From: Escherichia phage JP4
Direction: 5' to 3' (one strand)
Length of the DNA stretch: 64,000 bases
Sequence record: PQ330092
A model generated the notes under the pieces. It saw only the letters and a list, made by a program, of their open reading frames with translations. It did no database searches and had not been told where the DNA came from. Below are positions 46,464 to 47,303 of the stretch, piece by piece (position 1 is the first letter of the stretch; each line of letters opens with the position of its first letter). The translations under genes and the position numbers were made by a program.

Positions 46464-46493
46464 AATTCCTCACCAAACTATTTGTTATCAAAA

Positions 46494-46501
46494 TATTTAT
46501 A
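46494..46501 (-). promoter_or_regulatory. T4-type late promoter box for the endo VII-like gene
   Basis: Reverse complement reads ctataaatatt. Confidence 0.5.
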
Positions 46502-46554
46502 GATTAGTTATTTGCAATATTTTAAGTACTTAATGAATATTTTTATAAAAATAG

Positions 46555-46583
46555 TGAGACAACTTTAAAGTTTGTGCTATAAT
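46555..46583 (+). promoter_or_regulatory. Sigma70-like promoter with extended -10 (TGcTATAAT) reading into the ORF-free island
   Basis: gagaca, about 16-nt spacer, tgctataat; no ORF follows. Confidence 0.5.
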
Positions 46584-46589
46584 GTTTGT

Positions 46590-47044
46590 TGTAGTAATGA
46601 CAATCCTGTTGAATGCAGAAATGCATATAAATTAGAACCTGATCCTATCGAAAATGTAGATGGCAGATGAGCAGTTCAACAGTGCGATGAGCAAAAGAAA
46701 CCCGTTAGATGTGGGCATAGTTTGAACCCCTCACGGCAATGCGGCTCAATAAAGAACTCCGATAAGCATACAGAGAGTTCCTAGATAGACATATAAGGAT
46801 CGCACCTTACCAGATTTGCTAAGGGAGTTTATTAAGTGATTTTAATAAACAGCCTGAAGTTTGATTGTATAGACTTTCAGGTGAGTGTCAGGATGATTAA
46901 GACTGACGACCGTTGCACATGACTGCGATAGAGAGAAACAGAGCAACCCGCTTTCGTTCTTAATATATTTTTAAGAAATTCGCAATACAATAAATGCTGA
47001 AACCATCAGCGTCAAGAAATAGAGACTTCATTGTCTCTTTTTTA
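46590..47044 (+). ncRNA. Candidate structured non-coding RNA of unknown family (about 450 nt)
   Basis: Promoter at 46555-46583, intrinsic terminator at 47021-47044, no ORF of 60 aa or more on either strand, no SD-ATG small ORF, visibly higher G+C than flanks, GNRA-loop hairpin atgca-gaaa-tgcat and other stems. Confidence 0.4.
47021..47044 (+). terminator. Rho-independent terminator ending the candidate ncRNA
   Basis: agagac-ttcatt-gtctct followed by TTTTTTATT. Confidence 0.65.
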
Positions 47045-47260
47045 TTGTCTTCATTCCCCTGCGGGGGGATGAAAATGTCCTCAACAAATCCCGTCAAGTA
47101 TTAAATCTTTTAAAGTTCTTTATAATTTAATTTAATTAAATGAATATGAGTTACGTAGTAACGAATATTCTTCAGCTAACGAATGAAATGAGTTAGATGA
47201 ATCCAATAATATTAAAATTAATCCTTTCATAATTCAATTCAAATAATTCTGTAGTTTAAA

Positions 47261-47293
47261 ACCAAAAAAAAAAACCAGCAACAATGTGCTGGC
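47261..47293 (-). terminator. Terminator after minus-strand gene 47304..47513
   Basis: A-run (T-run on minus strand) adjoining hairpin ccagca-acaatg-tgctgg. Confidence 0.55.
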
Positions 47294-47303
47294 TATATGA
47301 AAA

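Follow-up and report, generated by a model that had tools for sequence, protein, structure and literature searches.

Large RNAs with deeply conserved, pseudoknotted folds are, to our knowledge, rare, and such RNAs have historically proved to be ribozymes, the cores of ribonucleoproteins or, recently, RNA-only assemblies. ROOL and GOLLD are large ornate RNAs of phages and prophages, according to a summary in PMC7567579 that draws on Harris and Breaker (2018), and both have been the subject of cryo-electron microscopy (cryo-EM; PMC12286853). The phage PA5oct, a relative of the RaK2-like group, expresses four noncoding RNAs (ncRNA001-004), two of which make up 1-5% of phage reads (PMC7318152), and the most abundant transcript of phage ICP1 is an unexplained ncRNA of ~800 nt (PMC7567579). 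Here we describe an RNA element in Escherichia phage JP4 (record PQ330092), located in a stretch of 64,000 nucleotides that we analysed as a whole and call the window. Like the RNAs of PA5oct and ICP1, which measure 0.24-0.8 kb, it is a unit free of open reading frames (ORFs) in a large lytic phage, and, as in PA5oct, four such units can occur per genome. The RNA family looks new and apparently undescribed, being without a homologue in Rfam 15 and unmentioned in the literature searched. The broad category of ornate phage-borne RNAs already has precedents; the novelty is the RNA family.

An earlier note, made by reading the window, had picked out positions 46464-47303 as an ORF-free, G+C-enriched island and a candidate structured RNA, a description that the present analysis bears out. 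Neither strand of these 840 nt holds an ORF of at least 60 amino acids (aa), the longest ORF within being 45 aa, and the interval is the biggest internal ORF-free gap of the window, the runner-up measuring 307 nt. The GC content is 0.40-0.415 over 46600-46900, compared with 0.23-0.30 in the flanks on either side. The single-sequence fold of 46590-47045 is just moderately better than that of shuffled sequences (z = -2.39), so the case for structure rests on comparative data. These were drawn from an alignment of 30 sequences (A2), which was used for the structure model; for a larger alignment of 41 sequences (A3) the formal pair count was set aside, since MAFFT misregisters the variable 5′ hairpins, and A2 together with a held-out test was used in its place.

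RNAalifold applied to A2 returned 78 pairs, 52 of them with compensatory double substitutions, and an all-against-all covariation scan added three crossing helices (the loop of helix H8 with AUACAAU, H10 and Hx), giving a model of 16 helices, 86 pairs and three pseudoknots. In A2, 95.7% of cells are paired under this model, against 38-44% when the partner is slid by 1-3 columns; both sides have changed in 63 of the 86 pairs, against 21-28 in the slid controls; and the covariation score is 0.542, against 0.07-0.09, with none of 500 shuffles reaching any observed value. In the three helices that form pseudoknots, pairing is 99.5-100%, with compensatory changes in 2/3, 6/7 and 3/5 pairs. The fold was also retained in 34 held-out sequences, none of which reached 93% identity to an A2 member or had served to derive the model: the core helices are 95-100% paired and the pseudoknots 99.6-100%, with lower values for the variable 5′ hairpins (H1 67%, H2 53%) that we attribute to misalignment and truncated extraction. 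Several pairs are mainly G-U (for example in 28, 25 and 24 of 30 sequences), which identifies the plus strand as the one that folds. Compensatory substitutions thus keep base pairs beyond controls, as expected of structured ncRNAs in general, and strong purifying selection acts on the fold at the RNA level.

The model arranges the conserved pairs in a 5′ domain, a middle domain and a 3′ core of nested pseudoknots (Table 1). Helices 1-4 are paired at 88-100%, with double changes in 5/6, 5/5, 7/8 and 2/3 pairs, and H2 corresponds to the GAAA-tetraloop hairpin that had been remarked on from the sequence. The AUACAAU strand that pairs with the H8 loop lies directly 3′ of H11. Beyond the core, AUCAnCGUCA is nearly invariant in the alignment, and an AT-rich spacer of variable sequence separates the second CGUCA motif from a two-hairpin 3′ domain. 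Folded one by one, 28 diverged copies whose stem sequences differ gave this two-hairpin structure, which is visual evidence; RNAalifold and a formal count on the MAFFT alignment of this domain captured just the inner stem of the second hairpin, for which we blame alignment quality. In total, ~80 positions are invariant over the 41 aligned copies.

Two variations on this plan were observed. Many copies, although not that of the window, carry an optional hairpin module at one or two positions (A2 columns ~330-370 and 510-540; for example L004:1680-1730, L134 and L003), composed of a GAUGGAU/AUCCGUC stem and a conserved loop of 14-15 nt, UUUnUACAAUAUAG, often with the palindrome GUAC/UGUACA; it could be a protein-binding or kissing-loop module. 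In Serratia sp. 2723 both CGUCA motifs (47010-47016 and 47092-47098 of the window) read CGACA, whereas a close relative, S. fonticola, has CGUCA in both (L171 versus L172). This concerted change suggests that the two motifs touch one common partner.

No sign of a protein-coding function was found, and a protein-coding gene or small protein was rejected accordingly. For each of the six small ORFs in the window copy, only 0-1 of the 29 other members retain an intact frame, and only 119 of 694 indel runs (17%) are multiples of three. The reading frame through the conserved block CAACAAAUCyCGUCA differs between copies through 1-nt indels, and 1-nt indels elsewhere in the family likewise displace an 11-codon frame that overlaps hairpin H15. 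In several GenBank records the RNA is overlaid with short hypothetical coding sequences (CDSs) of 23-86 aa, or with a 'repeat_region' (L006:1757-1909; L007:1424-2090; SHEFM2K and others); these CDSs are unsupported by frame conservation.

Far from being a peculiarity of one phage locus, the RNA family is multi-copy in phage and also occurs on bacterial islands. The window comes from a 121Q/PBECO4-like jumbo phage (Asteriusvirus); over the region and its flanks, identity is 99.3-100% to Escherichia phages PBECO4, 121Q, phAPEC6, G17, Sharanji and relatives, jumbo phages of 348-386 kb belonging to the genus Asteriusvirus, and BLAST revealed 4-5 matching places per phage record. In a near-identical whole genome of 352 kb (OR844650.1), four co-oriented copies lie at ~18.5, 128.5 (the window copy), 208.3 and 261.8 kb. 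Patchwise identity among them is 70-85%, with long blocks common to all four, and they are as diverged from one another as orthologues from other genera. A collection of phage isolates contained the element in RaK2-like jumbo phages only (70-71 records), which carry the names of Escherichia, Klebsiella, Salmonella, Erwinia, Yersinia, Serratia, Cronobacter, Pectobacterium and Xanthomonas. In IMG/VR, where a first 14-base pattern proved too unspecific (mostly chance matches) and was replaced by longer ones, the specific patterns found 29 and 40 stretches, almost solely on contigs of 345-378 kb. The location between the endonuclease VII (endoVII) and baseplate-hub genes is kept in Asteriusvirus, CBB, GAP32 and Munch; in Erwinia, Yersinia and Klebsiella phages, the copy that best matches that of the window has different genes around it. 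Including a metagenome scan, we collected 82 distinct full-length copies (54 clusters at 95% identity, 28 at 85%) from RaK2-like jumbo phages, metagenomes and small integrative islands of Enterobacterales.

The bacterial homologues came from a pattern scan of one genome per bacterial species, which yielded eight matches: Serratia fonticola (complete chromosome), Serratia sp., Enterobacter chinensis, Silvania, Buttiauxella, metagenome-assembled genomes of Enterobacteriaceae and one contig binned as Clostridium. All eight are full-length homologues with their own promoter. They belong to integrative islands of ~7-10 kb whose module, seen at ~12 bacterial and metagenomic loci, comprises an integrase (exchangeably a large serine or a tyrosine recombinase), the RNA, a convergent cI-like S24 repressor, a divergent HTH_35 cro-like gene and a 286-aa protein; these elements may be satellites, defence islands or remnants. 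The 286-aa 'protein A' is restricted to Enterobacteriaceae and has no match in Pfam, PADLOC or the Protein Data Bank and no PHROG function; as a membrane protein with three transmembrane segments (3-TM) and no family match, it gives no clue to the function of the RNA. An LprI-like protein and a DNA invertase follow it in the island order (L167, L169, L174, L182, L198, L202, L238, L239 and others). Of 148 island ORFs compared with the phage genome, a single one (a DUF4326 cargo gene) matched, its jumbo phage homologue being 41% identical.

Among complete genomes of Escherichia coli, 2 of 5426 contain the RNA, on a ~10-kb island adjoining ffs that also carries the candidate defence system PDC-M45. 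In strain LR-29-1 (NZ_AP027515.1; L175:15753-26400), PDC-M45 consists of a dual-OB protein, DUF488 and DUF4326. On the Serratia fonticola chromosome (L172:4775-5490), two identical copies of rof, which encodes a Rho-binding antiterminator, immediately adjoin the RNA where the island borders on tilS, and are probably a duplicated integration target.

A sigma70-type promoter with an extended -10 element precedes the core, with a predicted transcription start near 46590. Because promoter-like sites in the 2-kb region are at chance level (7 versus 7.8 expected), this assignment is supported by conservation and not by the scan: a counterpart lies upstream of all 30 aligned copies, with a -35-like GGGACA, GGAACA or GAGACA, ~17 nt, and TGnTATAAT (TATACT in one). 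Terminator-like sites are more frequent than expected (6 versus 0.8). The extended -10 promoter noted earlier, TGCTATAAT, is thereby upheld. The earlier note had further proposed that a clean intrinsic terminator closes a unit of ~450 nt; the hairpin and T-run are indeed present at 47021-47044, and their stem covaries between copies, but they do not close the unit, as conservation of sequence and structure continues to ~47201. The hairpin is found in 34 of 53 clusters at 95% identity and is missing from the other 19, for which reason we read it as an optional insert between two conserved parts, and probably as the 3′ end of a short form. The ~450-nt unit may accordingly survive as that short form, the full conserved unit being probably ~620 nt with a long form ending at ~47201. 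We infer from these signals a discrete transcript of the locus. In one paralogue type (L153, L137, L138, L140 and L141), which adjoins a conserved gene of 174-206 aa, an extra GC-rich hairpin with a U-run stands between the -10 element and the core and could be a 5′ stabiliser or attenuator. We also considered antisense promoters, since the CGUCA motifs read TTGACG on the minus strand; this was rejected, as the matching -10 positions are unconserved and covary as RNA pairs instead.

Table 1. Features of the RNA locus and its flanks, in window positions; helices follow the window copy.
Feature	Position	Strand	Remarks
Endonuclease VII homologue	45972-46463	-	Flanking gene, oriented divergently; outside the RNA
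Sigma70-type promoter	46556-46583	+	-35-like GAGACA (46556-46561), 16-nt spacer, extended -10 TGCTATAAT (46575-46583)
5′ domain	46608-46685	+	H1, H2, H3 and Hx; covariation model
H1, GUUGA/UUCAAC	46608-12 with 46675-80	+	Encloses H2 and H3
H2, GAAA-loop hairpin ATGCAGAAATGCAT	46613-46626	+	Sequence
H3	46639-66	+	Inside H1
Hx hairpin (pseudoknot 1)	46671-73 with 46683-85	+	Loop is the 3′ strand of H1
Middle domain	46688-46827	+	H4-H7 and a single-stranded stretch
H4	46688-92 with 46744-48	+	98% paired; encloses H5
H5, CCGU/ACGG	46702-05 with 46733-36	+	Inside H4
H6	46754-80	+	95.3% paired; 6/6 pairs compensatory
H7	46794-809	+	95.8% paired
Invariant unpaired UAAGGGAG	46820-27	+	Invariant alignment columns
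3′ core, nested pseudoknots	46852-46991	+	Covariation model
H8	46852-81	+	Loop AUUGUAU, 46864-70
Pseudoknot 2 (PKA), H8 loop AUUGUAU with AUACAAU	46864-70 with 46985-91	+	99.5% paired; 6/7 compensatory
H9	46886-908	+	3′ core
H10, GUUGC/GCAAC	46912-16 with 46943-47	+	100% paired; crosses H11 and H12 (pseudoknot 3)
H11, UGCGA/UCGCA	46924-28 with 46980-84	+	100% paired
H12, GAGAG/CUUUC	46931-35 with 46951-55	+	100% paired
H13	46958-76	+	3′ core
Small variable hairpin GCUGA-AACCA-UCAGC, then first CGUCAAG motif (47010-16)	46996-47016	+	
Terminator-like hairpin AGAGAC-UUCAUU-GUCUCU (47021-47038) and U-run of 5	47021-47044	+	Optional insert
H15 hairpin CUUCAUUCCCC-UGC-GGGGGGAUGAA, invariant G run	47049-73	+	99.3% paired; changes solely G-C to G-U
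CAACAAAUCCCGUCAAG, second CGUCA motif	47082-98	+	Conserved; after H15
3′ domain, hairpin one, GAAUAU-GA-GUUAC-GUA-GUAAC-GA-AUAUUC	47142-70	+	Per-sequence folds
3′ domain, hairpin two, UUCAGCUAAC-loop-GUUAGAUGAA	47171-201	+	Per-sequence folds; probable end of the ~620-nt long form
Terminator of the convergent 69-aa gene	47273-47294	-	Annotated as terminator in phage G17
69-aa gene, convergent with the RNA	47304-47513	-	Adjoins the gap on its 3′ side
69-aa ORF, then baseplate-hub gene	47304-48349	-	3′ flank of the gap

The gap is left without features in the carefully annotated record of phage G17, except for the terminator of the minus-strand gene, which may also halt read-through of the RNA. 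At the far side of the endoVII gene, a perfect 9-bp GC-rich hairpin (45962-45983; AAAGGGAGC-CTTA-GCTCCCTTT) with A and T runs on its flanks forms a bidirectional terminator between a convergent gp46-like gene and endoVII, overlapping the 3′ end of the endoVII ORF. Elsewhere in the window, 61550-61856 and 62118-64000 are also without an ORF of at least 60 aa, and neither has an Rfam match at gathering score; the latter reaches the window end, hence is not counted as an internal gap, and may simply be a gene continuing beyond that edge.

Searches against known RNA families agree with the earlier note, which could place the RNA with neither transfer RNA (tRNA), transfer-messenger RNA (tmRNA) nor group I introns. 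Rfam 15 (4227 models) gave no match at gathering threshold over the whole window, and at E<=10 the interval 46300-47450 returned just terminator-type small RNA look-alikes far below threshold, none of them over the core; at E<=5, no match fell on the element in 11 other copies. Neither tRNA nor tmRNA genes were predicted in the window by ARAGORN. A group I intron was rejected since the element is intergenic with its own promoter, matches no Intron_gpI model and has a helix order unlike P3/P7/P8, with the extra H12 interleaved and no P4-P6 between the 5′ strands of H10 and H11. RNase P RNA was likewise set aside, there being no match to an RNaseP model in the Rfam searches; motifs of the type GGAAAGUCC and ACAGAAnnCGGCUUA, which we take to be those of RNase P CR-I and CR-V, are missing from the family consensus. 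Neither ROOL (RF03087) nor GOLLD (RF01998) was matched at E<=10 or E<=5, and look-alikes of boxA, anti-Shine-Dalgarno and hammerhead sequences were judged by eye to be at chance level. With nhmmer filters off, ncRNA001 and ncRNA002 of PA5oct, both backed by RNA-seq, showed no similarity to the family; homology to these two was rejected on this basis, a shared 8-nt word being within chance. In the literature on RaK2, 121Q and PBECO4 with ncRNA or structured RNA, we found no description of the element.

We favour, with moderate confidence, the view that the gap is a stand-alone gene for a trans-acting, autonomously transcribed folded RNA whose dosage is amplified in the phage and which acts on a host factor or by itself. 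Under this proposal, host RNA polymerase would start at the strong extended -10 promoter, presumably early in infection, and the transcript would fold into a compact multi-pseudoknotted core (46608-46991) and end either at the optional terminator (~47044) or after the conserved 3′ extension. The folded RNA would then work in trans, rather than as a leader for any single gene, and its invariant loops (UAAGGGAG, GAAAC..ACCCGC, both CGUCA repeats and the G6 hairpin) would contact a partner common to phage and islands. Such a partner would come from the host, with RNA polymerase, the ribosome and an RNase or RNA-binding protein as examples, unless the RNA forms a self-sufficient RNA-only assembly. 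Several gene copies could supply stoichiometric amounts, as for a scaffold, decoy or sponge, and a need for large amounts early in infection would account for both the strong host-type promoters and the copy number. Autonomy is supported by the promoter conserved on all 30 aligned copies and by the window-type copy between endoVII and the baseplate hub: in Asteriusvirus, Mimasvirus and Munch-like phages no gene on its strand lies downstream of it, and it meets convergent genes. Where other copies have downstream genes, these are unrelated to one another, and no conserved neighbouring protein was found among the genes downstream of phage copies; the RNA is independent of any particular downstream gene. 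A link to the host is suggested by phage and islands sharing essentially no proteins, yet both carrying the RNA.

Several points weigh against a trans-acting RNA. Its partner is postulated and the multi-copy argument for stoichiometric action is indirect, and for all members the transcript and its ends are predicted from sequence. In addition, a simple stable trans-acting RNA leaves unexplained why a terminator-like hairpin lies mid-unit in two thirds of copies. This hairpin, with its U-run directly after the core, would suit a cis-acting leader, in which a long 5′ untranslated region controls read-through or translation of the genes behind it, its internal terminator and 3′ hairpins working through processive antitermination (as in HK022 put or EAR-like elements) or riboswitch-like sensing. 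Most copies outside the window-type locus also have the ribosome-binding site of a same-strand gene (Shine-Dalgarno sequence and ATG) 10-30 nt after the 3′ domain, which leaves room for a leader role, and in two Erwinia/metagenome copies the Shine-Dalgarno sequence and start codon are inside the last hairpin. We nevertheless consider a leader unlikely. Riboswitches and cis-leaders stand always upstream of, and co-oriented with, a related gene set, whereas window-type copies stand alone in at least three genera, meeting convergent genes, and the others precede genes of unrelated families; the terminator is absent from 19 of 53 clusters, the island copies are convergent with cI, and we know of no riboswitch or put/EAR element near this size, the present element being several-fold larger.

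The dispersed, co-oriented copies also fit DNA-replication elements, a further point against the trans-acting reading. As an RNA-primed origin, the structured transcript would prime the leading strand from a persistent R-loop that nucleates at the invariant G6 run, the four to five copies serving as early origins of the phage and the islands holding one, like ColE1 RNA II or T4 origin transcripts. The spacing of the four copies (~18, 128, 208 and 262 kb of 352 kb) accords with this, as do host-type promoters on all copies, which fit early initiation dependent on RNA polymerase, the invariant G run just past the U-run with AT-rich DNA after it, the single copy on small mobile islands and the similar size of RNA II (~550 nt). 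An origin is nonetheless less likely than a leader in our judgement: we know of no primer RNA with such depth of RNA-level conservation (three pseudoknots, ~80 invariant positions), the conserved island neighbour is a 3-TM membrane protein and not a replication initiator, and no copy was found on 72,556 plasmids. The cumulative GC skew of the phage genome tracks gene orientation with no inflection at the copies and is uninformative. We give lower credence still to a self-processing ribozyme, in which the pseudoknotted 3′ core would cleave or ligate, for instance freeing the RNA from downstream mRNA. Its nested double pseudoknot (H10/H11/H12 with H13) has the strand order P1/P2/P1.1/P4 of ribozymes resembling that of hepatitis delta virus (HDV), and many junction nucleotides are invariant and unpaired; but no Rfam ribozyme model matches at E<=10, a P3 equivalent is missing, the J4/2-like junction (AAU) has no cytosine, no cleavage site can be inferred, and a catalyst needs no multiple gene copies. 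A DNA-level element (a site of recombination, packaging or protein binding) or a decayed or unusual coding gene is largely refuted and highly improbable. The element is repeated and co-oriented, and some annotators placed short CDSs or a 'repeat_region' here; against this, compensatory changes keep strand-specific pairing, including many G-U pairs and long-range pseudoknots, the ORFs are unconserved, most indels are not multiples of three, and packaging would not tolerate four to five pac sites in a genome.

A more far-reaching reading, which we put forward only tentatively, is that the family represents a new class of large functional RNA common to lytic jumbo phages and small integrative islands, either a new ribozyme or self-assembling RNA machine or one that captures or reprograms a central host factor. 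Capture of a host factor would amount to an RNA-level weapon in conflict between phage and host or phage and island, and islands could exploit or counter RaK2-like phages via the common RNA. That islands otherwise unlike the phages also carry the RNA points to an activity aimed at the host or sufficient in itself, and hints at an unexplored connection of jumbo phages with mobile islands. Cultivable E. coli phages (121Q, PBECO4, phAPEC6, G17 and Sharanji) keep four to five ancient paralogues, making genetics, RNA-seq, pull-downs and cryo-EM feasible. In dozens of deposited genomes these loci are blank or carry spurious short CDSs, and a covariance model would fix their annotation.

Several known systems resemble the element in part. 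With ColE1 RNA II and T4 origin transcripts it would share a ~500-nt structured transcript from a sigma70 promoter with a G-rich element near its 3′ part and, as in T4-type genomes, several dispersed sites; it differs from RNA II in having no conserved antisense unit like RNA I, in not being found on the plasmids scanned and in its far stronger structural conservation. The strand order of the 3′ core follows that of HDV-like ribozymes, with H10 taking the place of P1, H11 that of P2, H12 that of an extended P1.1 and H13 that of P4. Unlike them, it is without P3/L3, without a catalytic C in the J4/2-like junction and without an Rfam match, its P1-like helix starts with G-C instead of G-U, and the core is embedded in a far larger RNA. 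The proposed logic, in which a host protein would be titrated by plentiful folded RNA and gene dosage would matter, recalls 6S RNA and CsrB/CsrC, to which there is no resemblance in sequence or structure: repeated GGA hairpins, a 6S-like bubble and an Rfam match are all missing. Descriptively, the nearest analogues are ornate phage RNAs of the ROOL/GOLLD type, and also OLE. The present RNA departs from ROOL and GOLLD in matching no covariance model, in its hosts, which are Gammaproteobacteria and not Firmicutes or rumen or lake taxa, and in occurring in four to five copies per genome, not beside tRNA genes. Some optional loops hold the palindrome GUAC/UGUACA, a mere lead toward oligomerisation. 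What it has in common with ROOL and GOLLD is a size of 500-800 nt, many conserved helices and pseudoknots, and a place in phage or prophage genomes without an associated protein gene.

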